A stretch of 64,000 bases of DNA from Amphiscolops sp. MND2022. Taxonomy: Eukaryota. The translations under genes were made by a program, and so were the position numbers. The DNA lies in assembly GCA_964187785.1 (NCBI GenBank), contig OZ076409.1:2668001-2732000 (forward strand). The letters are read 5' to 3'. A model generated the notes under the pieces. It ran no database searches, had not been told where the DNA came from, and was given only the letters and a program-made list of their open reading frames with translations. Shown here piece by piece: positions 30,397-50,219 of the stretch (positions are counted from its first letter, which is position 1; each line of letters begins with the position of its first letter).

Positions 30397-30808
30397 CTGC
30401 ATTGTTTTTCAAAATCCCACCTGTCATGCCAGCATGATGGAAATATAATCTACTAAATATCTGTAATGTAAATATTATGTCTTATGTACTTAGATATGGG
30501 CAATATGGTGTCATATAATAAGAGCCATGGTTGTGAGCAACCCTACGTTACTTGTACTTTAATCCCTATCCCCCCTGAGTTTGAGCTATATATATTTACT
30601 TAATACTGAGCGCTCTAATTCCGGTGTCCGCACAAATGATCTTGCCAATAGCTTTTAATGTGCTATCTTATTCAATATTGGTTTGTCACGATAAGGGAGA
30701 GAAGTTTTCCGGTCAGACTGGACCGAGAGATGTAAAATAATGGAATCTGTAACTTCTACTAGCTCCCTCGCCTCAGGACTTGTAGTCGTGACGAAATTCA
30801 GAAAAGTT

Positions 30809-31696
30809 CATCACTAATCCATCAGCGGACTTAGTGATCCTACAACTTGATCTATTAGTGAAATTACAGTGCTATATTATCAAGGTTCATCGCAATCACA
30901 TCGCCAAGATTGCGGGTGAACAAAGTGTAGGACATTTAATTGATTTCATTTAATGATCCATCAGCGGATCTCACGGGACTTTAAAATGCATGAAAAACCA
31001 TCCTATACTCATCGTCGCTTTGTGATTATTAACTTTCATTGTGCTTCTCATTTCTTAACAAGAGCATGACACGTCTATATTTCATCATCCTGACTAGCAA
31101 CTACAAGGAATGAGAAAGTACATCCTTAATTCATCCTAAAAAAGAGTGAAGTGCTGGATATCTGTTTTATTAGATTAACTCATCACTAGTTCATCGTAAA
31201 TTCATCGCTAGTTCGACTTGTGTTAGAATTAGCCGAATTTTTAGTTGAGTTCATCCTAAACTCATCGTTGGAATTTCATTCATTAGATTTTGCTGTTTTA
31301 TTGAATGTATTCATCCTAAAGTCATCGTATATTTGTCTTCACTGCAGAATTAGCTGTTTCACCTGTTTTATTGACTGAATTCATCCTGAATTCATCGTCA
31401 ATTTCACTAGTACTGGAAATTAGTTATTTTCGAGGAGAGTTCATCCTTTTACCATCGTTGATTTAAATTGTGCTGGAAATCATTCATTTTGAAGACGAGT
31501 TCATCCTTTTATCATCGTCAGTTTATATCGTGTTGATTTTCGAGCTAAAAGACCACCATTCATCGCATTTTCATCCAGAGCTAAACCAGACTTGAAAAAT
31601 CAGCAAATATTCTGACGAATTCATCGCGTTTCCATCTTTAGTTTTGAAGTATTGATTTTAGTGCTACAATTAGTTGGAAAACATCGTTTTCTCATC
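30809..31696 (+). promoter_or_regulatory. Phased CATC-N7-CATC motif array in LTR
   Basis: Pairs start at 30809, 30888, 30999, 31121, 31192, 31252, 31312, 31382, 31442, 31502, 31561, 31622, 31682. Confidence 0.75.
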
Positions 31697-31753
31697 CTGT
31701 GATGCAGTTTACTCTGGTTTGACTCGAAATTAGTATATTATTGAATGATTTGA

Positions 31754-31975
31754 GTTGCTATAGAAACCATGACACTGCGTGCAGGCAATTGCGACATTGT
31801 AAAGTGATGATTAGTCATAATTAGCGTATGTAGATGTATCATGTGGTTTGGCCAACTTGCGGCAGTTCACAACACCGGTCACGTGACTTACCAATTAGCA
31901 CCAACTGGCAACAGCCAATAAGAGTCGGCTGGTAAGAGATTTAGCGTCTTACCAGCCTGAAAAGACACGTGAACT
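31754..31975 (+). promoter_or_regulatory. Candidate LTR promoter module
   Basis: X-box-like GTTGCTATAGAAAC, E-box GTCACGTGAC (31878), two CCAAT boxes, 11-bp stem hairpin 31927-31957, second CACGTG. Confidence 0.4.
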
Positions 31976-32349
31976 GCTGAATTTTGGACCGCCATTAGAG
32001 ATTACTCAGACAAAAAATTGCGATTAGCTACTGTCCAGTTGGACGAATTACGACAGACTTGAACCAGAAAACACATCTCTTATTCATCGTAAATAACGCT
32101 ACCTCCACAACTCTGAGTAATTTCTTGATTGATATCTATCCGATGAAATTTGGATGAACTCTACTTAATCCTCGCTAACTATTTCTCGTTCGTTACTAGT
32201 ATCCTTGTCTTACTGTAAAACTCATCGCATTTACATCTCAAGTTCAGAAATAGTGAATTTGAGTTTCGAATAACAGTATAAAATAGAAAAATACATCGAA
32301 AATCATCCAGAATCCAGTCTTCACTCATAATTCCTTTTCTCCCACCTCT

Positions 32350-33855
32350 ATGAACCCAGATCTAGGCACTGAACTCAGAAGCGGAAGAATTATTAGTTCC
32401 TCATTAGAAACACCCGTTCAAACGGATCCAGACATGGCTCAGTCTTCTGCCAATGACTCTGATAGTAACGAGACTTCTGATATCTCGTCTCAGTTGTCTG
32501 AAATAAAAGAGAGTTATGAGAGAAAGATAAACGAACTACAGAATGAGTTCAGTCAACTGAAGGACTTAATGATGGCTGTCATAAGTAAGACAGACACCGA
32601 AAACCGACAGTCAAGCTCGAAAGGTCCTTCAAAGCCGACCCACACGGTTGGGCTCGACATGGTGACAGGAGCTACAGAAACCCGCTCCAACCGCCCAACA
32701 ACCAGCTTCACCAACTTCAGAAGTTACCAAGAAGACGATTCAGACGAAGGAGAATCAACCCCCAGAAGCAATGAGGAACGACTACTCAATGCAATCGAGA
32801 CGATCCCCCAACGGATCAAAAACACAACCACCAACACGAAGCTTCTGCAGACACACGTGCCAAATTTCAGAGGCCAAAAAGACAAATTCGTCGAATTTGA
32901 GCACCTTCTCCTCAACCACCTTAGCCCGCTTGCCAACAAAATCACCGAGGAGAACAAACTACACTTCTTTCAAAGCCTTTTGAGAGATGACGCAATAGAA
33001 TACTGGCAATCCATCCAGATAACGCCAATGACAACACTAAAGGACGTACTCGACCTCTTCAGAAAAGAATTTGCAAAAGAGGATCTAAAGGAAGTGGCCC
33101 GTTACAAATGGGATCAAGCACGCTATGATCCCACAACAGAAACATTCGGCGATTTCCTCAAAAATCTCAAGAAGACTGCCAAACAAGCCTTCGGCAATGA
33201 GGCCGACAGAATAATCAAAATGTTCCTGTTTGGAAAACTGCCAGTCGAGATTCAACAAGAGCTCACCATGGCAAACAAAGAAGAGAGCTCCCCAGAGGAA
33301 ATCAAAACCTACCTAATGCGAAAATACCAGTACCAGCAGTACGTCGCGCCACCCACGGCAATCCAACCATTCAACGCGGTCACCTCCTCAGCACCACCTA
33401 CGATTACAACGACGAAGCCTACAACAACAACGACGACCGCACAACCGACAGAACGAAAACGATTTGAGGGACAATGTTTCTACTGCGGAAAGACAGGACA
33501 CCGCAAAACGGAATGTCGCGCCCGACAACGAGACGAAGCGAACGGCATAAAGAAGGAGGATGCAATCCCAATGAAGAAAGCAGCCGATCCAGATAAGCCG
33601 AAATACAATCCAAAATTGGTCTGCCAGATTTGCGGTTACACAGGCCACTCAGCAAGGGATTGCAGACGACGTGTCCCTAAAGAAAGCAGTTCTGCATATG
33701 GAAAGATTCCATACGCAACGAATTCACAAGATGACAACAGAACTAGAAGACAAGACTTAAAACGACAACAAAAGCCGATGAATCCTATGCAAGCAGTCAC
33801 CGAAGAAGAAGACCAAGAAACCTACTCTGATGAAGACATAAATCAGGGTTTTTGA
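32350..33855 (+). CDS. gag: Gag (501 aa)
   Basis: Capsid-like region and two CCHC knuckles (CFYCGKTGHRKTEC, CQICGYTGHSARDC); the ORF starts inside the LTR. Confidence 0.93.
   Translation: MNPDLGTELRSGRIISSSLETPVQTDPDMAQSSANDSDSNETSDISSQLSEIKESYERKINELQNEFSQLKDLMMAVISKTDTENRQSSSKGPSKPTHTVGLDMVTGATETRSNRPTTSFTNFRSYQEDDSDEGESTPRSNEERLLNAIETIPQRIKNTTTNTKLLQTHVPNFRGQKDKFVEFEHLLLNHLSPLANKITEENKLHFFQSLLRDDAIEYWQSIQITPMTTLKDVLDLFRKEFAKEDLKEVARYKWDQARYDPTTETFGDFLKNLKKTAKQAFGNEADRIIKMFLFGKLPVEIQQELTMANKEESSPEEIKTYLMRKYQYQQYVAPPTAIQPFNAVTSSAPPTITTTKPTTTTTTAQPTERKRFEGQCFYCGKTGHRKTECRARQRDEANGIKKEDAIPMKKAADPDKPKYNPKLVCQICGYTGHSARDCRRRVPKESSSAYGKIPYATNSQDDNRTRRQDLKRQQKPMNPMQAVTEEEDQETYSDEDINQGF
32660..32671 (+). 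other. Primer-binding site
   Basis: TGGTGACAGGAG directly after the LTR terminal CA; TGG is complementary to tRNA CCA; cognate tRNA not identified. Confidence 0.75.
33846..33852 (+). other. -1 ribosomal frameshift slippery site
   Basis: G GGT TTT (X XXY YYZ) immediately before the gag TGA; pol is in the -1 frame. Confidence 0.85.
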
Positions 33856-36800
33856 TTCCGCCACGATTTCCACCCGCTAGAAACACAACGCGCGACCAAC
33901 GACTTTCGACTCAACCGACTACACACGACCGTCCAATGAAGAAATGGCAGCCTTCACTGGACAAACGACTAAAAGCTGACGACGTCTATCAGCGAAGACT
34001 TTCCAACGATGAAAAAGCGATGAGAAATGCACGTCAACTCAACGGCAGCCGCTTTTCTCCACTCGCTGAAATCAACGATGAACAAACGCTGAACTGGCAA
34101 CCAAACACCATGAGGCAGGTGGAAGATGCCAAAGAGATGGAAACCCACCATCTAGACGACGACTCGACTTCACACTCAACAATCGACAAACGGCTTAGTA
34201 TTAAAAAACATGCAAAACAGAGTAGTATTAACGTTTCAAAAACTAAAAAACATGCAATTAAAACAGAAATTCACGTTCTCAGTCCCACTTTACATTTAAA
34301 CAAGAAAGATAAAATGCTGTACGTCCCTCTTCAGTTTGACAAATACGAAAACAGCGCACTTTTAGACACAGGCGCAATACAAAGTGCAATGTCTGAAGCC
34401 GAACTGCGAAAAATAACAACGGCTCATCCAGAAGCCATCCTTCAAGAATTCCCCCCTCCGAATTTCAAAATTCAAATAGCAAACGGGAACTTAGTCCCAG
34501 TGCGTAAGCAAGCCTTACTTAGATTTTACGTTGCTGGAAAAGTATTCGAAGAAACGTTCCTAATCCTTCCAACAATGGGAACAATTTTAATTGGAATGTC
34601 CTTTTTTGAAAAGTACTCAGTCAACTTAGACATCAAAAACCACCTTGTCCACTTCCCTAATCACATGATGTCCATGCAAGTTAGACAGCAAAAGAACAAC
34701 AGATTCAAGACTGGTTTAATTGATTTGTGTTCCAGTACTAGAACAGTGATCCCTCCTCTCCATCAAGTGATGATACAGGTCCACAGTGACGCGGACATCT
34801 CACTTACAACTGGTACAGTTGAGGGCTCACCTGGATTCATGCGAAAGACGTGTTTGCTTGTTTCTCCAGCTTTGGTTGACCTAGACGAGGGCAAGACGAC
34901 AATCCAGGTCACCAACCCAAACAACCACACGTACACACTTGAAGCCAACACCACTCTGGCACACTTTCGCATCCCGACACCACACCAGGCGGCAAACATC
35001 ACGCCCATGCCAGTGGAACACTTGAACTTGATCACCAAGTATCCAGATGAAGCCGAAGCAGTGATCAACCAACTGTTCGTGAACCCTGAAATGAAGTCAA
35101 CCAAGTGGTACCCAACTCCCGAGACGTGCAGTGAGCCAGACAAACTCAACGCAATTGAGCGACGGATTTATGATGAGATTCTGGCAACGCGAGAGCTCGA
35201 GAAGCTTGACCCGTCCCAATCCGATGAACAACGGATGAACTTCCTGAAGAACTTCAACTGGGACGACTCGCTTCTTACTCCGTCCCAACGGTTACAGGTA
35301 GAGGAGTTGCTGGTAAAGTACAACTCCATTTTTGCTAGACACCGTTTTGATATTGGCATGAACACTGATTTTAAAGTTAAGTTAACACCTCAACATGAAG
35401 AACCTGTTTATTCACAAAGTCTCCCGACTTCGACAAATTTGAAGGACGATTTGCTCGTGGAGTTAGCCCTAATGCAAGAGTACGGGATTATAACTACTTT
35501 GCCTCACAGCAAATACTCTTCCCCGATATTTGCTCAGCGTAAACCTAATGGTAAATTGAGGATTTTAGTTGACTTGAGAAGAATAAACCACCTGATCAAA
35601 AACGATTACGGTGAGCACAATCATCCCGTAACAACAATTGCTGACGCTGCCCAACACATGGCCGGGAAAAAGTACTTCTGCAAACTTGATTGTTCCCAGG
35701 CCTACCATTGCATTCCAATGGCCGATGAGCAATCTGTCCAACTGTTATCGTTTAATTTTGGGTCTAGAACTTTTGCATTTTTACGTCTAGCACAAGGTCT
35801 TAATCGTTCTTTGTCAGCATTTACAGGAGTAATCCGTGAGTATTTGGACCCCTTGGTCAAAGCGGACCGCTGTGCCCAATATGTTGACGATATTGGAATT
35901 GCAGCACACTCACCCGAAGAATTGATTACCAACCTTGAACTTGTTTTTCAACAATTGCACAAAGCTGGTCTTAAACTTAGCATGAGTAAATGTGAATTTG
36001 GACAAAAACAAATTGAGTACTTGGGAAAAACCATTTCTAGCACTGGGATTGCTCCCATTGAAAAACGCGTAACAGACTATTTAACGAAGTTGAAACCCCC
36101 CAATTCAGTGAAAGCGTTGCAACGTTATCTTGGTTTTGTAAACTTTTACAGGTCTTATATTCCCCGTCTAGCTGATAAAACTTGTTGTTTACAGGAACTC
36201 ATCAAGAAAGACGTCCCTTTCAAGTTGAACCAACAACATAAAGATGCTATTTTTGAAATTAATGAAAGTTTGTTAAAAGCAACAAAAGTGTCTCTGAAAT
36301 TGCCATTACCAGATAAACAACTGGTAATCATGTGTGACGCCAGCGAACACGCTGCAGGCTATGTGTTGTTAATCGAGGATTATGCAGACCCGTCAGTCAA
36401 ACATACATACGCCCCTGTTGCATTTGGATCTAAGAAATTTCAGGGCGGCCAGATGTCTCTAACAATGTATGCCAAAGAGTTTTTAGCTATGCACTTTGCC
36501 TTCGATGAATTTGGCCACATTTTGTGGGGTGCGAAAAAACCCATCATTGTTATGACTGACAATAAGGCCTTGACTAGATTTTTCCAGGCGAAGCATATCC
36601 CGCCTTCACTTTGGAATTTTTGCGATCAAACCCTTCAGTTCAATTTTCTATTAGCACATGTTCCAGGAGTTGAAAATCCCCCAGCGGATTACTTATCTCG
36701 GCTTGAGATTAGACCCGAAGACCGTGTACATTTAAAATTGACTGATACTATTCCAATTCACAGGATCGAGATCGACATCGCCTCCCGTACACCAAAACAG

Positions 36801-38945
36801 GAGGAAGACGAGCCTGATTACTTCCCCGCGAGCGAACCACTCAGATGCAAACGCCAGAAGGATGTCAAAGAGATGAAATTGGCAACTGGCACTGACGTGG
36901 CTCATGACGATGGGAAAGGGATGAAGTTCACCAACTGTGAGAGAACAGCGGCCTCAGATGACTTCGCGACTGACAACCATCTGACGTACCGCCTCACAGA
37001 CGTGGACGAGCCGATTCAACTCTCGCAATTCATCCGTAAAGTATCATTATCACACCCGGTAATGAGTCAGGTTAGCCCCGCCGAGGGGATCGATCTAATT
37101 CAGGTCCAGAAAAATAACTGGGTTATCCAAAAAATGATTAGATTTGTAGCAGGTACTGAAATTTTGCAACACCCAGTTAATATGCAAGACCAGTTTTTTC
37201 AAAAGTTGTACAAAAATCGAAAACGCCTACAAGTTGTAAACGGCGTCTTGTACAGACAGTTTTTTGATCACACGGGACTAGAGTCTCACAAGCAGTTAGT
37301 CGTTCCTGAAGACTGTATTTTGAAAATAATTAGGACTCTACATAACAGCCCGGTACAAGGACACCCTGGTTTAAAGAAAATGTTGTATGAACTTCGTAAA
37401 AGATATTACTCTCCTAACTTAGCCTGTAAAGTTCAAAAAGTCCTTGACGGATGTGAAAACTGCATGAAGTCTAAAAGTGTAAAAGAAACGCAACTACGTC
37501 CACCGTTACAAAAAATCTACGACCCGTGCGACGGACCAGAAGACCTGCTGGAAATAGACACCGTTGGTCCACTCCCGGCATCGAACGGTTTTACACACAT
37601 TCTGACGGCTGTTGACGTTTTTTCGCGCTACCTGTTCGCCGTTCCGCTGAAGAGACCTGACACACATTCCGTAGTCAGAGGACTACTGTCGATCTTCACA
37701 AAACACGCGTATGTGCCCAAACACATTCTGACCGACAAAGGCACGGCGTTCACGGCTGAACTTCTGTCTGAAATCGCGAAAGCGGCTGATATTCACATCT
37801 CCCATGCCACGATAAAGCACGCGCAGACAATAGGCATGGTGGAGAGAACGCACGCGAAACTGAAAAAGATCCTTAAGATTAGTGTAAACGCAGACAGACC
37901 ACAATGGGACCGCTATGTCGACATAGCAATCATGGCCCATAACACAACGTATCATGATTCACTGAAATGTTCACCAACTGAAATTTTCCACGGAAGAACA
38001 CCATACAACTCACTAGATCTGCAATTCCGAAACGCAAACAAACCGGCTGAAACAAAGTGCAAAGACGTGAACGAAATTCTAGACAAAATGAATTTTATCT
38101 TCAGAGACAATCTAGACAACATCATTTCCGCCTATCACAAGTACAAAACGTACTATGATAGAAAAGCACGAGCACAGCCACTGAAGGTGAATGACTTTGT
38201 GTTCCTACTAGACCCTAAGTACGACTCTCAGAGAAGCAAAGAAGAGTTTAAAACTTTCCACTGGAAAGGACCGTACAAGGTGATTGAAGTGCTATCCGAT
38301 AGCAACTACATCATCCGCAAAGTAGGCACACACCAAACTCAGTGCGTACATCGCATGCGACTGAGATTGTTCAAACCGGAATTTCCGATTGACGACATCA
38401 ACGTGTCCAAACATCTCTACCCAGATACCGAAAGGGTTGAAGACACGGACATTTTCGACTCGAATATTCCGACGACCGACGAAGTAGATCAGAATGAGAA
38501 TGACAATCTAGATCAAGACTTGGTCGAAGAAGAGCCTTCAGAAGAAACAATTCCTCGGGTACAAGAACAACACACTCCACAAGTAATTCCACCAGAAATA
38601 ACCACGAGAATAGACTATCAGCAAGTAGAAACTGATCACAACAACTTTAGACCACCTACAGTTAGATTTGGAACGCGAGAAGAAATTATTCTACCGCCTC
38701 CCCGCGATGAAAGTAGGATAAGAGTACCTCTGAGAGACGAACAACACGAAAACCAGTCACAACAGACAAACACGCAAAACGAAAATGAAGAAAGGATGAG
38801 TTCTAGACCGTCTAGATCAAATCAAAGTAGGTACAGGTTACGTGAGAACCCTACACCGAAAACGTATCCAGACTTCCTCATTCATGAGATTACTTCAGCT
38901 AGAAACGCACTGAGAAAGACCAACAAAATAGACGTAACGATTTAG
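33852..38945 (+). CDS. pol: Pol polyprotein (PR, dUTPase-like, RT, RNase H, integrase)
   Basis: LLDTGA protease; LDCSQAY and YVDD in RT; CDAS/KEFLA/TDNK in RNase H; HHCC, IDTVG/TDKG/VER and WKGPY in integrase; uninterrupted 1697 codons. Confidence 0.97.
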   Translation: MIPPRFPPARNTTRDQRLSTQPTTHDRPMKKWQPSLDKRLKADDVYQRRLSNDEKAMRNARQLNGSRFSPLAEINDEQTLNWQPNTMRQVEDAKEMETHHLDDDSTSHSTIDKRLSIKKHAKQSSINVSKTKKHAIKTEIHVLSPTLHLNKKDKMLYVPLQFDKYENSALLDTGAIQSAMSEAELRKITTAHPEAILQEFPPPNFKIQIANGNLVPVRKQALLRFYVAGKVFEETFLILPTMGTILIGMSFFEKYSVNLDIKNHLVHFPNHMMSMQVRQQKNNRFKTGLIDLCSSTRTVIPPLHQVMIQVHSDADISLTTGTVEGSPGFMRKTCLLVSPALVDLDEGKTTIQVTNPNNHTYTLEANTTLAHFRIPTPHQAANITPMPVEHLNLITKYPDEAEAVINQLFVNPEMKSTKWYPTPETCSEPDKLNAIERRIYDEILATRELEKLDPSQSDEQRMNFLKNFNWDDSLLTPSQRLQVEELLVKYNSIFARHRFDIGMNTDFKVKLTPQHEEPVYSQSLPTSTNLKDDLLVELALMQEYGIITTLPHSKYSSPIFAQRKPNGKLRILVDLRRINHLIKNDYGEHNHPVTTIADAAQHMAGKKYFCKLDCSQAYHCIPMADEQSVQLLSFNFGSRTFAFLRLAQGLNRSLSAFTGVIREYLDPLVKADRCAQYVDDIGIAAHSPEELITNLELVFQQLHKAGLKLSMSKCEFGQKQIEYLGKTISSTGIAPIEKRVTDYLTKLKPPNSVKALQRYLGFVNFYRSYIPRLADKTCCLQELIKKDVPFKLNQQHKDAIFEINESLLKATKVSLKLPLPDKQLVIMCDASEHAAGYVLLIEDYADPSVKHTYAPVAFGSKKFQGGQMSLTMYAKEFLAMHFAFDEFGHILWGAKKPIIVMTDNKALTRFFQAKHIPPSLWNFCDQTLQFNFLLAHVPGVENPPADYLSRLEIRPEDRVHLKLTDTIPIHRIEIDIASRTPKQEEDEPDYFPASEPLRCKRQKDVKEMKLATGTDVAHDDGKGMKFTNCERTAASDDFATDNHLTYRLTDVDEPIQLSQFIRKVSLSHPVMSQVSPAEGIDLIQVQKNNWVIQKMIRFVAGTEILQHPVNMQDQFFQKLYKNRKRLQVVNGVLYRQFFDHTGLESHKQLVVPEDCILKIIRTLHNSPVQGHPGLKKMLYELRKRYYSPNLACKVQKVLDGCENCMKSKSVKETQLRPPLQKIYDPCDGPEDLLEIDTVGPLPASNGFTHILTAVDVFSRYLFAVPLKRPDTHSVVRGLLSIFTKHAYVPKHILTDKGTAFTAELLSEIAKAADIHISHATIKHAQTIGMVERTHAKLKKILKISVNADRPQWDRYVDIAIMAHNTTYHDSLKCSPTEIFHGRTPYNSLDLQFRNANKPAETKCKDVNEILDKMNFIFRDNLDNIISAYHKYKTYYDRKARAQPLKVNDFVFLLDPKYDSQRSKEEFKTFHWKGPYKVIEVLSDSNYIIRKVGTHQTQCVHRMRLRLFKPEFPIDDINVSKHLYPDTERVEDTDIFDSNIPTTDEVDQNENDNLDQDLVEEEPSEETIPRVQEQHTPQVIPPEITTRIDYQQVETDHNNFRPPTVRFGTREEIILPPPRDESRIRVPLRDEQHENQSQQTNTQNENEERMSSRPSRSNQSRYRLRENPTPKTYPDFLIHEITSARNALRKTNKIDVTI

Positions 38946-38972
38946 CCAAGAAAAGTCTCATTTTAAATCTGA

Positions 38973-41201
38973 GATGTATTACGGATGAACAAATCACAAA
39001 ACGAACGAATTACATGCAATTTTAACTTAAAAGGTACATGAAGATGTAAAATGGATGAAAAGTTACTAAAAATCACATGAAAACCGCATACAAACAAAAC
39101 GAGATGTAAAACGGATGAAAAACGATCAAAAAACCAGAAAACACAACACACAAAAATTTGAGATGAAAAAAGGATGAAACCACACGAAAATTTAGCTCAG
39201 ACACACGAGAGATGAAAAAGTGATGAACTCAGCCAAAAAATCGACCAATCAACATGCAATATTTACTAGCGATGCATTTGAGATGGAAAAATACCATCAG
39301 AATGCAAGGGCACCCACGTTCATGCTATTACAAGACTCTAGCTCGGCCAGAGGATGAAATAGCGATGAACTCGATCCAATTATTCATAAATTACATGAAA
39401 TCAATTAACGAGATGAATTTGTGATGGACACTACCATCAAATCGCGACCGAATTTATCGTTAACCTGACACAATACTCTAGCTTCGCTGGAGGATGTCAA
39501 AACGATGAATTTAGTCTAAATGGAAATTCGAAAATATTAAATGACTTACCAACACCTCTTTGTGAGGGGAAACACCATCAACATAACATCACAATAAATC
39601 AGCTAATTCGCAAACAACATGTAACTCCACGAAACGATAAAAAACAACCGACCTTATTTCGAATCATGCAACGAAATTATGCGACACAAAAATGAAATGA
39701 TCAATACATGTAAAGTTCAAAGACCTGCCAAATCAATGACGTCACGAAAGCAATTAACAATTCCAAACTACATGCAATACAAATGAGCAACGCACGGAAA
39801 TATACATGTACCGTTCAAGAATGAATGAGATAATATATGCAATTCACACCAAAAACATCCGAACCTAGACGAATAAAAATGAAACAAACGATCGAAAATA
39901 CATGAAGTCTACTAACTTACATGCAAAATATAAGAACTGACGAAACACCTACAAAACTAATAAAGGAGTGAGCACCCCCCAGTAAACATCAGCTCATAAC
40001 ATACAAAACACCCCTATCGAAAAGCTAAAAACATTCCTTCGTGCTGGCTGGCATTTTCTCTGAAAAGAGTGCTGGTTAGTTGAGGCGGGGAGCTCACAAC
40101 CATATTCGGATGAAGCTTGCTGCGTTGGTTATCCAGCGGCTAGTGGATTCTCAGTTAGTTTTGTAGGGGCTTTGTGACGACAAAGCCCTGTCCAAATGAA
40201 CGAAAATAAAATTAGAAAACAGGAAACTACCACCGAACATATAACGACATGTCAATAATGGGGCAACCCATTTAAAAGAGCACATCATGTAACAATCCAT
40301 ACATGCAAATACAAGAAACAGATAGTCTAAAACTGGACACATGCATAACCGTAGATGTCAATCACATTGATTGATCGGACTGACCGTCGAATGGACAAAC
40401 CCATTTCGACGAATAATGGCAAACAACCAACCGAAAAATTGACATATAGACTATATATAGCCCGAAACTACGAGATTCCATTTATCTGAAAGGAGCGGAG
40501 CAGCTCCACTCACCCAGCTCTGGACTGAAGCCACTAGTACCTTGCACGCCTACAGGCTATCAGTACCACTGCTGAGTGAACTTATTTTCGACTGCCACGC
40601 AAGCGGCGGTCACCAGAATTCGAACTAAAAATACATGCAATGACGTTCCGAAGTTGACAAATTAGAAACATGACGACGATGATCAAAACACATGTACCAT
40701 AAAATTCATGCAAATTCAAAAACACGACAAATGGTTATAACCGTATAACGCTAAAATACATGAAGAAAACAATCCGAAACACCGCAATATTAATAAAAAT
40801 TTCCTCCGGACATGAAAAATGCAACCCCCGCTTACGTTATAGCCAAATAACATCGAAAACACGCAAAAATCCGTACATTTCAACGCACGATGAAAAGAAG
40901 ATGAACTATACAGCAGAAACTGGACAAGACAAACTTGCGATACAAAAACGATGAACTATAGCAAATAACGCACGAAAGTGCTGAAATCAAACGCAAGATG
41001 AAAAAACGATGAAATACGTAGAAAAACCACATGTAACAACATGCAATATTTCTGACGCACCGAAAGATGTAAAAACGATGACAAAAACAGTTTTCACGAC
41101 GTCGCTTGGTCGACCGAGGAAAACGTGATGAAAATGAGATGAGAAATCAAAAATCAAACGCTGACGAATTACTTACACTACCACGAGATGTAATAACGAT
41201 G
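38973..41201 (-). promoter_or_regulatory. GATG-N7-GATG (CATC on minus strand) arrays downstream of pol
   Basis: Pairs at 38973, 39043, 39103, 39162, 39211, 39271, 39353, 39412, 39493, then again from about 40889 to 41187. Confidence 0.7.
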
Positions 41202-41542
41202 AATACCATAAAAGCGATGCGCGACCGATGATCTATGATACAAAAATACCGAGGACAATGCTTCAAGTGAACTGTTGGACGAACTTGTTGATTTACGCGT
41301 ACTTAATATCCTCTGTAACTATCACTAACAACTCAAAAGGAAAACAGATGTTGGGCACCAAAATAACTATTGTTGTAAATACACTGCTACCGATCTTTCC
41401 GACGTAGCAGAATTTTCTCTCTCTCTCCCCTCTCTATCCAGAGGCTGTACCCAATGTTGACAAATCATTAAAGAACTAATACTACAAAAACAATAATATA
41501 AACAATACAAATCTAAATCAACTGAGTTTGCACCATTCAAAG

Positions 41543-42480
41543 TTAATTGCCGATCTCTGGGCTCATTGCTCGCTCTCCATCCACTTCATATCCTAACTGT
41601 TCATAGATATGACGCCGGTAATCTTCATTCGCGACGATGCCAATGTCATCCCATAGGAGCTCCTCCGTGAAATCTGACAGATCCGTGATACGCCCAACTG
41701 CTTCTGAGACTTCATCCAAAAGCGGCCCTTCAACACTCTCGTACAAGCGTATTCGATGTGCCTTCAAGTAACTGACGACCGTAGCGCACACACTGCTGGT
41801 CACATCACTAGACATGTGACCCACTTGCACACACTTCGTTTCCAACGGAAACTGCGGACTTTCACACAAGCATAACAAGAATCGAAGGAAGCGAACTGAC
41901 GATTCACTAGCACACGCCCGGAACAGGTCGATCTCAGTACCAGCCGTAGCTAATACTTCAGGGCTCACAAGACTGCGATACTTGGCCACAAAGTTCGGCA
42001 TGTCGCGATCCATCCGTCTCCGCTCAGCTGACGTGATTCGCTTGAGTTCCAGAAGTAACTCCGTGAAACGGCTTGCCTCCTGAACCACAAGTTCTGTCTC
42101 TGCCTCTGCTAGAATGACCGGACAACAGATACTGAGGTGGAATGTCACCTCATCCTTCAGTCCCTTCACATTGAGAACTTCCTCAACGACCGCAAGCAGG
42201 AACTTCTGCACTCGCACTAAATCCTCTTCAAAATGGGCTAGATTTGCATAGTCGTCGGAGTGCACTGCAAACCGCCCCCGCAACCACTCTAATTTGGGTC
42301 CACTCAACTCCAATTCAGACACAACCAAGCTCAGGAAAGCACGTACATCTGTCACTGGAGGTAGAACAGACTCATCCACCACATAGACCAACAGGGCTCG
42401 TACAAAACAGGCGCTCTCATATGCCCAGTGACACCCGCGAATTGCACTGTCACTGAAACTCCACTGGTATGCAGTCACTA
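41543..42480 (-). CDS. Antisense hAT-transposase-derived gene, last exon
   Basis: tttcag acceptor, phase 1; KFLLAVVEEVL...LSICCP, RFLLCLCES and PLLDEVSEA resemble a hAT C-terminal half. Confidence 0.75.
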
Positions 42481-42619
42481 CTGAAACAACAAAAAGCGAC
42501 AAAGAATTGTACACACGTTTCACACGATACTCACAAACCAATCCAACCCCCCCCTGCACACAATACTGACTTAGCCGCCCGAACCAAACACACGAAATAA
42601 ATAATACAAGAATACTCAC

Positions 42620-42815
42620 GAGCACGGAGAACAAGACTCAAGACATGAAGCCGCATCGCAACGCCAGGATCACCACAGAGCACATAGTCTAGCGGATCAA
42701 CATCTCCCTCGTCATCAGGTGTCCTCAGTAAACCGCAAATGAAAGGCCATTTCTCACGCAATTCAGAGAGAACGTCAGGCACGTCCCACAAAGACACCTC
42801 GCCTTCTAAGACCGA
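42620..42815 (-). CDS. Antisense hAT-derived gene, exon
   Basis: ttgtag acceptor, gtgagt donor, phase 0 to 1; SLWDVPDVLSELREKWPFI resembles the TRW...WP segment. Confidence 0.75.
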
Positions 42816-42945
42816 CTACAAAAACAAATCACAAGTTAAAACAGTTTTATTAACGGAAAGATACCACCCCCCCCCGCAAAACATAATACATAGCGAGCCC
42901 ATTACAACCATAAACTTCGATAAAACAAAACTCTATGACACTCAC

Positions 42946-43431
42946 CCGCAACAGTTTGGGACAGGACAACAACAGATCATCTTTCACATAGGGTTTCAGT
43001 CTAGACTGCAAGTGATTAAGGATAACATGAACGTCGGTGCCCCCAAGAACTCTCGCGCTCGCAGCCACTATAAGTCGATTGATGTCAGCCAGTCGAACGG
43101 GTACTAAGCTAATCGTCCCAATTCCGGCACTTGAGCACAAGACACGATTTAACGGCGGGAACAGCTCACAATTTAGGCCGAGGGGACAGATCTCACTCAG
43201 AGCACCACAAAGCAGGTTCACAATCCACGAAACTAATCGCGGCTCCCAATCCTGCGTGTAGCTAAAGGAAAACAGGATATACTGCGAGACCCCTTCTGAG
43301 CTACACATGCTCACTCGCCCAACGACCCTGTCCGCCACGATGCCAATGGAGAAGCTACTGAACGTCGACTCACTCCACAAAGCAATCAGACGCCGCATGA
43401 CGAAGGGCCACAAACCCAAAATGATCACGCC
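42946..43431 (-). CDS. Antisense hAT-derived gene, exon (degenerate RNase H-like core)
   Basis: ttttag acceptor, gtgagt donor, 486 nt, phase 0 to 0; GLWPFVMRRLIALWSESTFSSFSIG. Confidence 0.75.
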
Positions 43432-43565
43432 CTAAAACACAAACGTAATACTGTACATAAAGCAAATCTGCAAACTCAGAAACATATACAAACTACATAA
43501 TTCAAATCTTATATTTGCCGCCCATTCGCTACTAGCTACAACTAATAAAATAAAAATATAGTTAC

Positions 43566-44128
43566 CACAATATCATCAAGTCGACACCTCCGTCCAAACA
43601 TGGTCACGTGCTGCGCATCGGTCGCCACCATTAGCTCCCATAATCCACATACACTCAGCAGGTCACAGTCCCGGTACAGAGCATCAATCACCAGACACAG
43701 GAACAGCCGCACAGTACGTTCCTGGCCTTCCGATTCGTCCTGTTCTAGATCTTCCCAGACAGGTTTCCCTGCGAGTTCCATCTGGAAAACTTCTGCTGGG
43801 GTAACATCTGGGCAACGCTCAACAATAGGCACAGTCACTCCTTCCAACAAAGCTGATTGAGCCACACTGTCCGACACTGACATCAGATTGCCGTCACGAT
43901 CCCGCAATGCTAGCCCGCGTCTAAGCCGAACCAGACAATCGAGGCGGTGATGTTGGACGCCCCGACAATGCTCCATAAAAGTCGTGATACCACGACTTGC
44001 AACCTTTATGTCCCGCTTGCACAACAAGCACCTCACATAAGATTCACGGGACTGATGATATTTCGCGTATCCAATAGCTAAACCACAATACACGTGATTG
44101 AACCAGCTCCGAGCGATCCGTTTCCGCT
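43566..44128 (-). CDS. Antisense hAT-derived gene, zinc-finger exon
   Basis: aacag acceptor, gtaact donor, phase 1 to 0; W...CLLCKRDIKVASRGITTFMEHCRGVQH (BED-like C2H2). Confidence 0.8.
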
Positions 44129-44786
44129 CTGTTTTAACACAACAGCATACATATCAGACACCATAGAAATGCACACAGCAACGTACCACATCTTATGAAC
44201 ATCCTCAAAAACCGAAAAATGCAAAAGTAAAACGACAAATCAAAAAGTTCACCCGGAGTGATGAAAAAATGATGTAAAATAACATTTTCATCGGGAAATA
44301 TAAGCGAAAACGAAGAAAAAACAAAAAATGAAAAAGAGATGTAATTGTAGACCACCAGGATGAAAAATGGAAACTTTAAAGAATGAAAGCCTCGAACGAT
44401 GAAAAAGAGATGAATAGAACAACTTTGAACCAAAATTGAGATATTCTAGAGCGAAAACAACTTAACGATGAAGAAGAGATGTAAACTGAAAAGAAATCAC
44501 TGAAAGATAGCGAAAACCCAAACGAGAAATTTTAAAGATGTAAAAGAGATGAAAAGTTCCAAAAAACGACCAGAGAGCGAAAAGACTATTGTCCAAAACT
44601 TTTGACGATGAGAAAACGATGGAAAATGAAAAACTGCGGAAAACATATAGTGAAAACAGAAAAAACGATGGAAAATGGATAGAAAAGAGAAAACGTGAAA
44701 AATGCTAGCGAAAGTAAAAACGAAAAGGGAAACGAATGAAAATCTACTGATCAGATACTTCACCGGTTTAAAGCTGTTTAGTTAAC

Positions 44787-45458
44787 CTGGCAGACGAGAT
44801 GCAATGGGCTCGTCATCGGAGTCCAACAGGCTGGGTCCCATTGGAGACGTCTCGAGGTCGACAGTACCCACATTGGACACAATACTTCCTGGAGCTGACA
44901 TGCCAGATGGAGGACTATGCAATGAGAGATCATCAGGAATTTCCAGTCGGGTCTCGGTGGTACCAGCTGAGGGAACTTCGGACGGGTCAACGTCAACGTC
45001 AAATGCCCCTGGAACATCAGCAACCGGTGGAGGAGGAGAAGCAGACAGGGAAGTCTCCACCTGGGGTTCATAAAACGTGGAACCATCTGCTGTCTCAGTA
45101 ACGGCTTGGACCTCCTTGTCCGCAGTATCCACACAGGCATCACTGGCTGCATCTATGCAAGCAACAACGGCATTTGCAGCGGTGTCAACTGTGACGCGAG
45201 GTGGAGGAAGAGGACTCCTGGGAGAGACACTGGCGTTGAGGTACCGATGGAAGCTCGGTGAGAGGACGGAAGCGGAAGCCCTCATCACAGGAGAACTCAC
45301 TGCACCTAGTGACAGGTCCTCAAGGAAAGAAGACAACTCTAGTGGAGGGGGCCCTCCTTGAGTGCTAGCATCAGCACTAGTTGCGGCGAAATCACTCGTC
45401 CCTACTCCTACGGAATAGCTGATGGGACGAGGCCTTGGTGCGTGGATCGGTGTGGGGC
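44787..45458 (-). CDS. Antisense gene, acidic S/P/D-rich exon
   Basis: tttcag acceptor, CAG|gttaac donor, 672 nt open, phase 1 to 1. Confidence 0.7.
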
Positions 45459-45701
45459 CTGAAAGAAGAAACAGTTACTGGACGACGACGATTAGAGAAG
45501 AAAGAGCGCGTACGCCGCGCGAAGAAAGAAAACCGGAGAAGAATACATCCAAAACTCATCTTCAAAAAATGGGATTTACAGCGAGTCAGTCATGGAGAGC
45601 TGTGAATGTTCATGACACATCCTAAATTCATCTCGAAGGTGAATTACATGGGTAATCGACCGCAAAGGACACTACATGCAGATAAGATGTTTACATCGGA
45701 A

Positions 45702-46240
45702 TCACATCGGAGTGTTCGGACGATAGCCTAGAGAAGTGAAAAGGAAATTGACAAACTCACTGTACTGCTGGATGCTATCCCGCAGCATGTCCCGCATGTG
45801 GCGGTCATACCACCCGAAGGTGATGCTGCCTAGGGAGGCATACCAGGGGTAGTGGTCTGAAACACCATACGAAAAGGAGTCAGCTACTGGACGGAGTAAG
45901 GATGAGATATGAGGGATTCGAAGACTGAACTGAAGAATGGAAGGATAGTACTTACACTGCGGAAGATACGGGACGTTAGGGGCCTGTTCAGTTTGCTGCT
46001 CAGGTTGATACTGAGGTACGTGAGATGCTGCAGGGATCGGAGCATCTTGAGGCGGAACTGTCTGCAACGTAGTCAGTTCGGAAATTATGCCGACAGAGTG
46101 AACGGAGTCCGCTAAAACCAAGACACGCCTTCAATTCCTAATTATTCCCCGGCCCGTTTGTGAAGAAGAGAAAAAATAGTGCACTTACTTTCTGTGACCT
46201 CGGTCTCTGGTAACGAATAGATGGAGTTGATATCCGACAT
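45702..46240 (-). CDS. Antisense gene 5' exons (46240-46189, 46111-45956, 45856-45761, optional 45727-45702)
   Basis: ATG at 46240; gtaagt, gtaagt and gtgagt donors, all phase 1, with matching acceptors. Confidence 0.55.
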
Positions 46241-47362
46241 CGCGAAGAATTGCAAAACAATCTGAAAAGAATGGAAGACGGTGAAAGAAGGAAAGAAATC
46301 GAAGAATCCAAGAGCAGAGAATTTGATCAGTAATTAAATGGCCTGATCAACCATGATTACAGAAGAACAAATTCAATAGAAGATTTCAAAGAGCGCGACG
46401 CAGCTTGAATGCCATGTTAATCAAATACTTGAATTCAGAAGATGAAAAATCGATGAAAAATCTCCGATTTCAAATACTGACAGCACTTTTCTTCCCAGTA
46501 CAACCAACTCAAGCTTTCTCTGAGAATGGATCGTCCTCTCCTAGGACTTGACAAAAAAAACTTCAAGTATTTGATTTGTCGACAGCTGCCAGTCTCAGAT
46601 CAATACCGACGAAGTTGAGCGGAAACGCGCAAAGGAAATCGTGGCGATTTCAAACCGACTTAAATGGAGGATGATTTATGGATGAGAATGCTACTGACAA
46701 CCGGTTGTAATTTCCTTCAGTTATAATTCAGTCTCAACCAATCAGATCGAGCAACAGTTACTATGGCGACGAATTCATCTCTTTCTCATCCACTCAAAAG
46801 TCGAGCAGCGGAAGTAACTTTTGACAGTTGCTATGGCGACGATTCATCTTCTTTCCATCGCGAGTAAACAAAGCGGCGGCGCCAGCCATTCCGCTAAACA
46901 GCATCGATGTCTCGTTGAGCAAACAATTCATCGTTCATTCATCCCCGACTCGTTGCCAATTTGTCAATGAAGCTAATCGAATTGTTTATTCAGCGTAGGC
47001 ATTTTGGAGGGAAACTTTTCTCCGAGAAATCAGCTTCTACCGAAAATAACCAGCCGAAACTCCCGTCAAAAGCATGACAACCAATAAAATGCAGATCAGC
47101 GGACATTCGATGGACCAAGAATTAGAGTTGCCGCGTCGAAAATTTTAACCGAAATCACCCAGGATGATGCCAGAAAAGACGATTACCGAAGGTCCTCTTC
47201 TCAGAGAAGCTCTCACAGGACAGAACAAACGAAGGACATGCCAGTTCAGAACTAACGAAGGCCATTTTCTCACCAACCAAACGAAGGACCAGTCGAAGCC
47301 AACGCCGAGACAACCATCCTCTGCACATTTGGCCCCTGCACTCTCAGTCCAAATCCCGCCCC

Positions 47363-47368
47363 GGGGAG
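47363..47368 (+). other. Short polypurine tract
   Basis: GGGGAG abutting the 3' LTR TG. Confidence 0.55.
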
Positions 47369-49605
47369 TGTCATGCCAGCATGATGGAAATATAATCTAC
47401 TAAATATCTGTAATGTAAATATTATGTCTTATGTACTTAGATATGGGCAATATGATGTCATATAATAAGAGCCATGGTTGTGAGCAACCCTACGTTACTT
47501 GTACTTTAATCCCTATCCCCCCTGAGTTTGAGCTATATATATTTACTTAATACTGAGCGCTCTAATTCCGGTGTCCGCACAAATGATCTTGCCAATAGCT
47601 TTTAATGTGCTATCTTATTCAATATTGGTTTGTCACGATAAGGGAGAGAAGTTTTCCGGTCAGACTGGATCGAGAGATGTAAAATAATGGAATCTGTAAC
47701 TTCTACTAGCTCCCTCGCCTCAGGACTTGTAGTCGTGACGAAATTCAGAAAAGTTCATCACTAATCCATCAGCGGACTTAGTGATCCTACAACTTGATCT
47801 ATTAGTGAAATTACAGTGCTATATTATCAAGGTTCATCGCAATCACATCGCCAAGATTGCGGGTGAACAAAGTGTAGGACATTTAATTGATTTCATTTAA
47901 TGATCCATCAGCGGATCTCACGGGACTTTAAAATGCATGAAAAACCATCCTATACTCATCGTCGCTTTGTGATTATTAACTTTCATTGTGCTTCTCATTT
48001 CTTAACAAGAGCATGACACGTCTATATTTCATCATCCTGACTAGCAACTACAAGGAATGAGAAAGTACATCCTTAATTCATCCTAAAAAAGAGTGAAGTG
48101 CTGGATATCTGTTTTATTAGATTAACTCATCACTAGTTCATCGTAAATTCATCGCTAGTTCGACTTGTGTTAGAATTAGCCGAATTTTTAGTTGAGTTCA
48201 TCCTAAACTCATCGTTGGAATTTCATTCATTAGATTTTGCTGTTTTATTGAATGTATTCATCCTAAAGTCATCGTATATTTGTCTTCACTGCAGAATTAG
48301 CTGTTTCACCTGTTTTATTGACTGAATTCATCCTGAATTCATCGTCAATTTCACTAGTACTGGAAATTAGTTATTTTCGAGGAGAGTTCATCCTTTTACC
48401 ATCGTTGATTTAAATTGTGCTGGAATCATTCATTTTGAAGACGAGTTCATCCTTTTATCATCGTCAGTTTATATCGTGTTGATTTTCGAGCTAAAAGACC
48501 ACCATTCATCGCATTTTCATCCAGAGCTAAACTAGACTTGAAAAATCAGCAAATATTCTGACGAATTCATCGCGTTTCCATCTTTAGTTTTGAAGTATTG
48601 ATTTTAGTGCTACAATTAGTTGGAAAACATCGTTTTCTCATCCTGTGATGCAGTTTACTCTGGTTTGACTCGAAATTAGTATATTATTGAATGATTTGAG
48701 TTGCTATAGAAACCATGACACTGCGTGCAGGCAATTGCGACATTGTAAAGTGATGATTAGTCATAATTAGCGTATGTAGATGTATCATGTGGTTTGGCCA
48801 ACTTGCGGCAGTTCACAACACCGGTCACGTGACTTACCAATTAGCACCAACTGGCAACAGCCAATAAGAGTCGGCTGGTAAGAGATTTAGCGTCTTACCA
48901 GCCTGAAAAGACACGTGAACTGCTGAATTTTGGACCGCCATTAGAGATTACTCAGACAAAAAATTGCGATTAGCTACTGTCCAGTTGGACGAATTACGAC
49001 AGACTTGAACCAGAAAACACATCTCTTATTCATCGTAAATAACGCTACCTCCACAACTCTGAGTAATTTCTTGATTGATATCTATCCGATGAAATTTGGA
49101 TGAACTCTACTTAATCCTCGCTAACTATTTCTCGTTCGTTACTAGTATCCTTGTCTTACTGTAAAACTCATCGCATTTACATCTCAAGTTCAGAAATAGT
49201 GAATTTGAGTTTCGAATAACAGTATAAAATAGAAAAATACATCGAAAATCATCCAGAATCCAGTCTTCATTCATAATTCCTTTTCTCCCACCTCTATGAA
49301 CCCAGATCTAGGCACTGAACTCAGAAGCGGAAGAATTATTAGTTCCTCATTAGAAACACCCGTTCAAACGGATCCAGACATGGCTCAGTCTTCTGCCAAT
49401 GACTCTGATAGTAACGAGACTTCTGATATCTCGTCTCAGTTGTCTGAAATAAAAGAGAGTTATGAGAGAAAGATAAACGAACTACAGAATGAGTTCAGTC
49501 AACTGAAGGACTTAATGATGGCTGTCATAAGTAAGACAGACACCGAAAACCGACAGTCAAGCTCGAAAGGTCCTTCAAAGCCGACCCACACGGTTGGGCT
49601 CGACA
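47369..49605 (+). repeat. 3' LTR (2237 bp)
   Basis: Copy of the 5' LTR, followed by TSD CCACC. Confidence 0.96.
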
Positions 49606-50219
49606 CCACCTTTTTATTAGTCGGCGGTTTTCGGTGAAAAACGCAAACTATAGTAGTGACTTTTTTTATAGTGACAGATTTTATAAGACCAACGAAGTGA
49701 CAGAATTTATAAGCTTTATAAGCTGACTTGAACTAACACTAAATGCCACACTACTTCTACTGGCACTTGAGATAGAGGTTAATTAGGCTTTTTTGAGGCC
49801 CCTTTCACATTTTTCGGCACTATGAGACTTCCTGGGGACCGAAAAATTGAAAACTTGTAAATATGTTGTCGCTGAAAAAGTTTTATGCGGAGTTGCTAGC
49901 AAATTTTTTGCTCCATTTTCGCTTGTCGAGCTTTAATTTCCAGTTCCATTAAAAGAAGTTTAAATTAAAGTTTTAGAGACGTCTATTGGTGATTTTTTAA
50001 TGATGAATGGAAAAAACTTTCGTGACAATGATGGTAAAATGTACGATGTGGTGAGAATGTAAATAACATGTAACTAAACTTGAAAACTACCAAAAATTCT
50101 GAAATTGAGCACCAGAAATTACAAGTGAAAAAATTAACACAGTTTTCTAAGATTTACTCGAAATTTGTGTTCCATTTTTTTTAAAAAAAGGCGGATTGGA
50201 AGCAAAGAGAGGGTTGGGG

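Follow-up and report, generated by a model that had tools for sequence, protein, structure and literature searches.

A CATC dyad under selection and an antisense gene for a BED-like zinc-finger protein in a young animal LTR retrotransposon: a candidate self-recognition system

Why does a retrotransposon carry about fifty copies of one short dyad, most of them in its own non-coding DNA, and could the protein that reads them be encoded by the element itself? The question is raised by a 64,000-nt stretch of the Amphiscolops sp. MND2022 assembly GCA_964187785.1 (contig OZ076409.1, positions 2,668,001 to 2,732,000, forward strand), hereafter the window, whose own numbering is used throughout. Positions 30422-49605 are one young, structurally complete copy of a Ty3/gypsy-type long terminal repeat (LTR) retrotransposon of ~19 kb in an animal genome, with gag and pol on the plus strand and a multi-exon gene with a BED-like zinc finger on the minus strand, between pol and the 3′ LTR. 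A preliminary description of the window had proposed that the product of this antisense gene is a dead hAT protein that binds arrays of CATC-N7-CATC in the element. We compared the copy with its relatives in the same genome and find that selection maintains the CATC cores and that the dyads are confined to the element. The finger protein is a possible binder of the arrays, and a hAT origin for it is unsupported.

The dyad is strongly enriched and geometrically strict. The window contains 73 CATC-N7-CATC dyads on both strands together, against 1.61 ± 1.14 (maximum 4) in 100 dinucleotide-preserving shuffles, and 70 of the 73 fall within 30422-49605, which amounts to ~53 copies per element when one LTR is counted. 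The gap is exact, since a spacing of seven nucleotides gives 70 matches and no other spacing between 0 and 20 yields more than two. When oriented, the motif reads TT-CATC-[C/G]-(T/A-rich)-(T)-CATC-[G/T], a direct repeat with half-sites 11 bp apart, or approximately one helical turn. Successive dyads are separated by 48–49, 59–61, 69–72 or 80–82 bp, in steps of ~11 bp. Outside the introns and the upstream region of the antisense gene, the dyads of the window copy are placed as follows.

30809..32237, plus strand: U3 array in the 5′ LTR up to the gag ATG, 17 dyads (16 on plus, 1 on minus)
34008..36923, minus strand: six pol dyads at 34008, 34125, 34425 (plus), 35223, 36861 and 36909 (five on minus, one on plus)
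38973..41230, minus strand: two post-pol arrays (38973-39590 and 40889-41230), 16 dyads (15 on minus, 1 on plus)

Ten successive U3 dyads (31121-31682) lie 59–71 bp apart when the overlapping pair 31181/31192 is taken as one site, and on our reading of the sequence all 17 LTR dyads would be upstream of a TATA-like box. Spacings in the post-pol arrays are 49, 59–60, 70 and 81–82 bp (compartment counted as 38946-41542). The 658-nt intron of the antisense gene holds six dyads, five on the minus strand (gene sense) and one on the plus strand; the next intron upstream, between exons x1 and x2, holds three, all on plus; and the region upstream of the gene holds five (46441 and 46670 on minus; 46776, 46845 and 46929 on plus). 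Strand bias is therefore strong within single compartments (plus/minus: LTR 16/1, post-pol 1/15, 658-nt intron 1/5, pol 1/5). These counts bear out the preliminary description, which had placed the motif in both LTRs (17 each by our count), the post-pol region (16), the 658-nt intron (6) and the region upstream of the gene (5). It had seen no arrays in gag, pol or the exons: gag and the five antisense coding blocks indeed contain none, but pol contains six, at positions common to all nine families described below. The five minus-strand pol dyads encode D-x-x-x-M in the pol frame. In the 44.8 kb of window that flank the element, dyads occur only as three microsatellite matches.

These three off-element matches are 11-bp microsatellites, (ATTCATCCATG)n and its complement, at 57009-57505; they have the TTCATCC half-site and the 11-bp period in common with the dyads, and a BLAST comparison of 57009-57505 with the family members found no similarity. 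Within both LTRs there is also a CATC-N6-CATC variant (CATCGAAAATCATC; 32293-32307 in the 5′ LTR), located past the TATA-like box but before the point where transcription is presumed to begin.

Is the dyad itself preserved, or only the DNA around it? Nine full-length representatives were compared, comprising the window copy (A) and eight others from the same genome, labelled B to F, two of which, E3 and F, have decayed, their antisense genes being interrupted by stop codons. LTRs, gag-pol and antisense gene have one common layout in 9/9 representatives, among which the last antisense exon is 42–100% identical. All nine carry 41–76 dyads per ~20 kb sampled, with N7 as the sole enriched gap, and all nine have the same compartment pattern and strand bias: 10–18 dyads on plus in the LTR, 5–7 on minus in pol, 6–15 on minus after pol, 4–7 on minus in the long intron and 1–3 on plus in the x1-x2 intron. 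Gag has 0–1, any antisense exon block 0–1 and the flanks none, those of the other copies amounting to 12.9 kb.

Pairwise alignments of the non-coding DNA separate the cores from their surroundings. Between A and D, identity was 0.89 in the CATC cores, 0.70 in the 7-nt linker and 0.65 in the spacers; the corresponding values were 0.90, 0.73 and 0.77 between A and C, 0.82, 0.71 and 0.70 between A and E3, and 0.64, 0.48 and 0.43 between A and F. The adjoining linker served here as the control against the aligner anchoring on repeats. Tandem Repeats Finder (TRF) detected only degenerate periods of 59–70 bp, with 76–79% matches, within the LTR and post-pol arrays (60 and 70 bp, with 78–79% matches, for U3), indicating that the spacers drifted and the dyads did not. 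In pol, dyads occupy offsets common to the families (156, 225, 273, 573, 1371, 3009, 3057 and ~4930 nt), and in the most diverged family the linkers of these dyads are altered, along with some amino acids, and both GATG cores are kept. The conservation of the cores well above linkers and spacers, together with the retained pol sites, shows purifying selection on the dyad itself: selection maintains the CATC cores, and the dyads are confined to the element.

The element that carries these arrays is delimited on both sides. Alignments place its true ends at 30422 and 49605, with a duplicated CCACC beyond each, and its main parts are the following.

30417..30421, no strand: 5′ target-site duplication CCACC, preceding the 5′ LTR (its partner at 49606-49610 follows the 3′ LTR)
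30422..32657, plus strand: 5′ LTR, 2236 bp, TG...CA, from a repeat-pair alignment
32350..33855, plus strand: gag, an open reading frame (ORF) of 501 amino acids with two CCHC zinc knuckles (Pfam zf-CCHC, E 1.7e-7)
32658..32675, plus strand: primer-binding-site-like sequence beginning TGG, directly 3′ of the 5′ LTR
33834..38945, plus strand: pol, ~1700 amino acids (1697-amino-acid ORF), open, in the −1 frame relative to gag, from ORF frames and Pfam
46241..47368, no strand: region upstream of the antisense gene, ending in the polypurine-like GGGGAG (47363-47368)
47369..49605, plus strand: 3′ LTR, 2237 bp, with 17 dyads at 47756-49183, the same as in the 5′ LTR

The two LTRs are 99.78% identical over 2238 columns, with five differences (four substitutions and one indel). 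Besides the U3 dyad array, the 5′ LTR contains CCAAT-like boxes and the gag ATG at 32350; a putative TATA-like box (32277-32283) and an AATAAA (32502-32507) would give it the customary U3-R-U5 arrangement. Codons 1 to 103 of gag belong to the LTR (32350-32657, and again 49296-49605), so the ORF of 113 amino acids that follows the 3′ LTR is part of the LTR and not a truncated second element. TGGTGACAGGAGC... stands directly after the 5′ LTR and GGGGAG directly before the 3′ LTR. Pol has the Ty3/gypsy domain order by Pfam, that is protease-like, reverse transcriptase, RNase H and integrase (RVT_1, E 1.6e-23; RT_RNaseH, E 3.7e-16; Integrase_H2C2, E 2.9e-13; rve, E 2.9e-13; Integrase_p58_C, E 1.1e-7), the protease-like match being below threshold (E 0.006).

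Copies of this kind are abundant. Genome-wide there are 577 exact matches (287 forward, 290 reverse) to the 16-mer that adjoins the 5′ LTR and none to its reversed control, from which we estimate several hundred young copies. DNA of the antisense gene is present in at least 40 genomic copies at 91–100% identity, its exons match at least 127–150 places at identities from 100% down to ~50%, mostly stop-free, and clustering of pol at 99% identity puts 1482 sequences into one cluster. These numbers make the clade a major repeat of the host genome. That genome, 1.07 Gb in size, has Wnt genes scoring above the Pfam cut-off, which marks it as an animal's. Searching with the pol protein returned 143 relatives, none of them named, and the pol search within the host genome gave only copies at ≥99% identity.

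The second component of the proposed system is the antisense gene, whose exons (x0 to x5) and introns are listed below in the direction of its reading.

41543..46240, minus strand: antisense multi-exon gene, proposed ATG 46240-46238, stop 41543-41545
46189-46240, minus strand: exon x0, predicted from the sequence, like the start codon
within 45761-46121, minus strand: exon x1, with predicted internal boundaries
45459..45760, minus strand: x1-x2 intron, ~302 nt, phase 1, donor A/GTGAGT and acceptor TTTCAG/GC as read from the sequence
44787-45458, minus strand: exon x2, acidic low-complexity region
44129..44786, minus strand: x2-x3 intron, 658 nt, phase 1, frame-compatible GT-AG, donor CAG/GTTAAC, acceptor ACAG/AG
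43566-44128, minus strand: exon x3, holding the zinc finger
43879..44046, minus strand: zinc-finger core, 56 residues (x3 residues 27-82; coordinates computed from residue numbers)
from 43431 to a donor between ~42856 and ~42946, minus strand: exon x4, the donor not being fixed in the window copy
41546-42481, minus strand: exon x5, the last exon

All five antisense coding blocks are open, and the ratio of nonsynonymous to synonymous divergence (dN/dS) against the eight sister families is 0.06–0.34 in every one of them, wherever synonymous divergence (dS) can be estimated, from which it follows that all five are coding. By this codon comparison, the antisense gene is shown to be real and to evolve under purifying selection. 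The x2-x3 intron is found in the same place and phase in 7/8 families, with a length of 599–672 nt and the donor CAG/GTTAAC or CAG/GTTACC. For the x1-x2 intron, a script recovered a phase-1 intron of 296–301 nt with the same type of acceptor in B, E3 and E2, and for A it picked a different, weaker donor. The x3-x4 intron is in phase 0 and measures 126–148 nt in 6/8 families and 192 nt in a seventh. How can introns persist in an element that moves through RNA? Antisense orientation spares introns in retroelement genes by an established logic, and these introns would outlast retrotransposition because they are antisense to the genomic RNA and hence would not be spliced from the sense RNA. An antisense mRNA, its splicing and a promoter of its own are accordingly predictions from the gene structure. 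LTRs, target-site duplication, gag-pol, dN/dS and introns together confirm the preliminary description in its view of the locus as an LTR retrotransposon with a multi-exon antisense gene, including the 658-nt intron and the zinc finger.

Three regions can be told apart in the encoded protein. The N-terminal one is acidic and of low complexity; next comes a BED-like C2H2 finger with a basic stretch behind it; and the C-terminal one is helical, searches having returned no known relatives for it. Exon x2, with a net charge of −21 and 56% S/T/P/G/A/Q/N, may resemble an activation region. In x3 the finger follows the pattern C-x2-C-x16-H-x5-H(H), with a W-F pair ~24 residues upstream, and C-x2-C...H-x5-H with the upstream W-F is conserved even in relatives of ~20% identity. 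The finger core is 80–96% identical across families and the rest of x3 44–94%, falling to 44–50%; the finger is the best-conserved part of the protein. Its assignment as BED-like rests on this pattern and on zf-BED matches that stay below the Pfam cut-off of 20.6 bits in three members (13.0 bits in the window copy, E 0.11; 15.0 and 17.4 bits). A language-model search, taken as a lead only, sets the finger exon beside CGGBP1-like and SPIN-DOC/ZBED5-type finger clusters (0.91–0.93).

Does the protein descend from a hAT transposase? In Pfam, no family reached threshold for any exon of the window copy at E ≤ 10 and no match was hAT-related; the same was true at E ≤ 5 for 26 last-exon and 17 finger-exon relatives, so that Dimer_Tnp_hAT was found in 0 of 27 last-exon sequences (the window copy at E ≤ 10, the 26 relatives at E ≤ 5). 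Sequence-profile searches of the PDB at E ≤ 10 gave nothing for x3 or x5 and two unrelated weak rows for x4, an exon that the language-model search did not recognize either (0.76). The structural model of x5 is confident and entirely helical over residues 17-204 and of low confidence over the C-terminal 108 residues; Foldseek matched it to nothing in the PDB at E < 0.5, and the best VIA-align score (Z 6.0) went to PadR-type and designed helical proteins of a common arrangement, with no transposase among the matches. With no hAT Pfam domain, no PDB sequence match and no fold match (x5), and with zf-BED below threshold and the language-model lead as the remaining traces, the dead hAT protein of the preliminary description finds no support, and a hAT origin is unsupported.

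Relatives of the protein are nameless for the most part. The x5 profile found 46 near-length proteins, all unnamed ENA entries without Pfam domains, and the search for longer proteins homologous to x5 found none. Against 1.84 billion representatives the x3 profile gave 100 matches, and nine of the 10 looked up were unnamed ENA proteins. The tenth, XP_041969314.1 (Aricia agestis, 1591 amino acids, lipocalin repeats), aligned six times with the finger-exon profile over positions 91-134 (E 1.6e-9); we regard this match as spurious and repeat-driven, though it is unexplained.

Different parts of the element have diverged to very different degrees, as seen when window positions 33852-46130 were compared with loci L009-L024. 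Relative to the E-type families, pol of the window copy has a dS of 0.15–0.16 and 96–97% amino-acid identity, gag a dS of 0.40–0.88 and x1 a dS of 0.39–0.60. In x3-x5 synonymous sites are saturated and amino-acid identity is 42–58%, and the two introns inside this block are unalignable (52–56% identity). The dyad-bearing introns and the upstream region beside x3-x5 are 80–95% identical. This mosaic suggests that x3-x5 may have been swapped as a cassette between lineages, or else that the rest of the element was homogenized by recombination.

If the finger protein reads the dyad, finger and dyad should be found together, and to a degree they are. Finger-core identity was set against dyad density in 16 samples. 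All 12 samples with a finger core 65–100% identical to that of the window copy have 1.3–3.8 dyads per kb; they comprise the nine families and three loci of one further family whose x3 is 42% identical (L028-L030). Among the four samples with a core of 30–34% identity (H-type, a finger that matches at least 150 genome places), three have no dyad. One of these three, an 18-kb stretch (L032, L025 and L031; G000:C4:31755221-31773269), has gag-pol, with a pol 37–65% identical to that of the window, and a homologue of the finger exon in antisense ~4.7 kb downstream of gag-pol, which makes the antisense gene older than the dyad-rich clade. Outside this set, in an abundant family whose pol is 40% identical, 8 kb contained a single dyad and the 1.5 kb beyond pol contained none. 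The preliminary description had looked to co-variation of motif and finger sequence, and this was not seen: the dyad is the same in 12/12 samples with the closer finger, three of the four H-type samples have none, and the fourth has the same dyad. Searches for another motif that would belong to the H-type finger (same-word dyads, 6–8-mers and TRF, on 18 kb and 9 kb) found nothing comparable. The pattern of close fingers with the same arrays fits self-binding and, just as well, plain phylogenetic distance.

What kind of molecule would read the dyad? Two identical half-sites exactly one turn apart, the free linker, the use of either orientation and the placement ahead of the promoter make it probable that double-stranded DNA is what is recognized, by a protein dimer or oligomer. 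We hypothesize that a protein in dimeric or higher oligomeric form docks on the dyads at the DNA level, and that this protein would be the element's own antisense-encoded finger protein. By marking every copy of the family in trans, it would either activate transcription from the LTR and antisense promoters or hold silencing chromatin off those copies. Binding of the arrays by the element's own finger protein, in the manner of VANC or of a retroviral transactivator, is the reading we tentatively prefer, as a serious possibility short of an expectation. Our trust is slightly lower again in the fuller picture, that of an animal LTR clade with a recognition system of its own, in which an oligomeric BED-like finger protein on ~50 selected dyads trans-activates the element or shields it from silencing, and in which exchange of the x3-x5 cassette on a near-constant pol would point to a conflict with the host over the non-finger parts.

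Several observations weigh against self-binding. The 18-kb H-type stretch described above has the gene and no dyad, and such arrays are therefore no requirement of the gene family. The H-type sample with a finger core of 34% identity (L037; G000:C9:22041112-22050111) has five CATC-N7-CATC dyads, at the junctions of a fresh tandem repeat of six 31-bp units (reverse-complement 3202-3387, 99% matches) ~2.2 kb upstream of the finger exon; H1, an older copy of that family, has a single degenerate 31-bp unit and no dyad. This repeat suggests that the dyad may be useful whatever the finger variant. The dyad is also the same in every family despite the divergence of x3-x5 to 42–58% identity with saturated synonymous sites. 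Moreover, the co-occurrence of finger and dyad follows phylogenetic distance and is not independent evidence. The finger itself lies below the Pfam threshold, and the AlphaFold model of the finger exon, built on eight sequences, is unusable (pLDDT, the predicted local distance difference test, 43). Taken together, the L037 repeat and a dyad that stays constant where x3-x5 is deeply diverged speak more for an unchanging binder, e.g. a host factor.

The arrays could thus be sites for a conserved host DNA-binding protein, such as an enhancer, insulator or chromatin factor, which the element exploits, as in the comparable case of the Su(Hw) sites of Drosophila gypsy; the finger protein would then have another task, e.g. 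in nuclear import, in the export of RNA or against host defence. Apart from the constancy of the dyad and its appearance beside the L037 finger, the U3 sites precede the TATA-like box and so stand where enhancer factors of the host act, and selection on the cores fits any binder; a host factor explains the arrays equally well as self-binding. However, dyads outside elements amount to three microsatellite matches in the 44.8 kb and 12.9 kb of flanks, a small sample, and a simple enhancer would hardly account for dyads within pol, within the introns of the antisense gene and immediately before that gene. Nor does the more distant pol family of the same genome use the dyad. We consider a host factor, with another task for the finger protein, possible and slightly less likely than self-binding, and the comparative data, which would fit binding by the element's finger protein, do not separate it from binding by a host factor.

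Could the dyads act instead in RNA, or in the reverse-transcription intermediate, serving packaging, dimerization, nuclear export or stability, with the Gag knuckles or the antisense protein as reader? The strong strand bias within each compartment would fit such a role, since most dyads of a compartment would show the CAUC form in the same potential transcript (the sense RNA for U3, the antisense RNA for post-pol and intron), and Gag has its two CCHC knuckles. Yet the upstream region mixes orientations (three plus, two minus), the x1-x2 intron runs opposite to the 658-nt intron, and the sense genomic RNA would hold 25 CAUC-type and 29 GAUG-type dyads; both orientations within one region argue for recognition on DNA and against RNA. 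An exact 11-bp spacing with a variable linker is typical of double-stranded DNA recognition, and Rfam families gave no match within 29000-51000. A role in RNA is improbable on these grounds. Finally, a neutral by-product of minisatellite expansion, in which a 60-bp unit chanced to hold the dyad, would account for the degenerate 59–70-bp periods in parts of the LTR and post-pol region, for the dyads made by the 31-bp repeat of L037 and for ~11-bp steps through slippage on a half-site repeat, but it is strongly disfavoured, to the point of being scarcely credible, by cores conserved far above linker and spacers, by one dyad in at least six separate arrays of both orientations with unrelated spacers, by its persistence at fixed pol codons and by the same pattern in 9/9 families, one of which has non-coding DNA that is barely alignable (53–63% identity).

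The locus offers a concrete system for deciding between an element-encoded and a host binder, with a 15-bp dyad, a finger core of 56 residues, several hundred young copies and the natural variation of at least nine families. If the finger protein binds the dyads, it would show self-regulation or self-protection of a retrotransposon independent of host factors, and why the clade became abundant. If a host factor binds them, the arrays would mark a strong, selected regulatory module that has spread to hundreds of genomic sites. In a full-text literature search, no animal LTR retrotransposon was found described with such a pair of protein and arrays.

Parts of this arrangement have counterparts in several known systems. 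hAT transposases (e.g. Hermes) bind short subterminal repeats as oligomers, and the finger described here resembles those of hAT, ZBED and CGGBP1 proteins in its C-x2-C...H-x(3-5)-H pattern with upstream aromatic residues. Unlike in hAT proteins, neither an RNase H-like transposase core nor the hAT C-terminal dimerization domain was detected by Pfam (x3-x5), PDB profiles (x3-x5) or fold search (confident part of x5). The closest parallel in logic is a plant DNA transposon: an element-encoded protein acting on its own motif arrays is documented for VANC, in that VANC21 is found on non-coding DNA of VANDAL21 (introns, intergenic stretches and termini) that holds YAGTATTAY in dense tandem-repeat arrays, with binding demonstrated by chromatin immunoprecipitation sequencing and electrophoretic mobility shift assay (PMC5735166). 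Like VANDAL21 in Arabidopsis, the present element has an accessory protein and a short motif, rare elsewhere, that tandem repetition has arrayed densely in its own non-coding DNA, including introns of its genes, upstream regions and termini. VANDAL, however, is a Mutator-type DNA transposon of plants and this is an animal LTR retrotransposon for which binding is a prediction; VANC targets, as that work describes them, differ among related families and change with the protein, whereas one dyad serves all families examined here; and unlike in the VANC case, no Pfam family exceeds threshold on the protein.

For the antisense gene, fungal Boty elements reportedly offer a parallel in their antisense gene brtn. 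The plant LTR retrotransposons Grande (gene23), RIRE2 and Retand have extra antisense ORFs between pol and the 3′ LTR whose function is called unknown, and some plant antisense-ORF proteins are reported to localize to the nucleus (PMC7264820). Position, orientation, conservation across copies, a promoter of their own (predicted here) and the want of clear database relatives are common to these ORFs and the present gene. The latter differs from its plant and fungal counterparts in having at least five introns and a BED-like finger, and cognate motif arrays do not appear in the descriptions consulted in that source.

Transactivators are known for complex retroviruses: Tas/Bel1 of foamy viruses acts on U3 and an internal promoter, and HBZ is an antisense retroviral gene of human T-cell leukemia virus type 1 (HTLV-1). 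An antisense promoter is likewise described for HTLV (PMC7264820). As with Tas/Bel1 and HBZ, the accessory gene here lies between pol and the 3′ LTR and is proposed to act on U3 and an internal promoter of its own element, and antisense coding in a retroelement has precedent; those cases differ in being vertebrate retroviruses with env, in having few response elements against ~50 here, and in lacking any sequence relationship to this protein. Drosophila gypsy, finally, has a single array of 12 sites in its 5′ untranslated region for Su(Hw), a host protein. Like gypsy, the element described here is an LTR retroelement with regularly spaced, in this case candidate, sites for a zinc-finger protein in non-coding DNA; unlike gypsy, it has several such arrays, in the LTRs, the introns and the post-pol region, and the candidate binder is encoded by the element itself.

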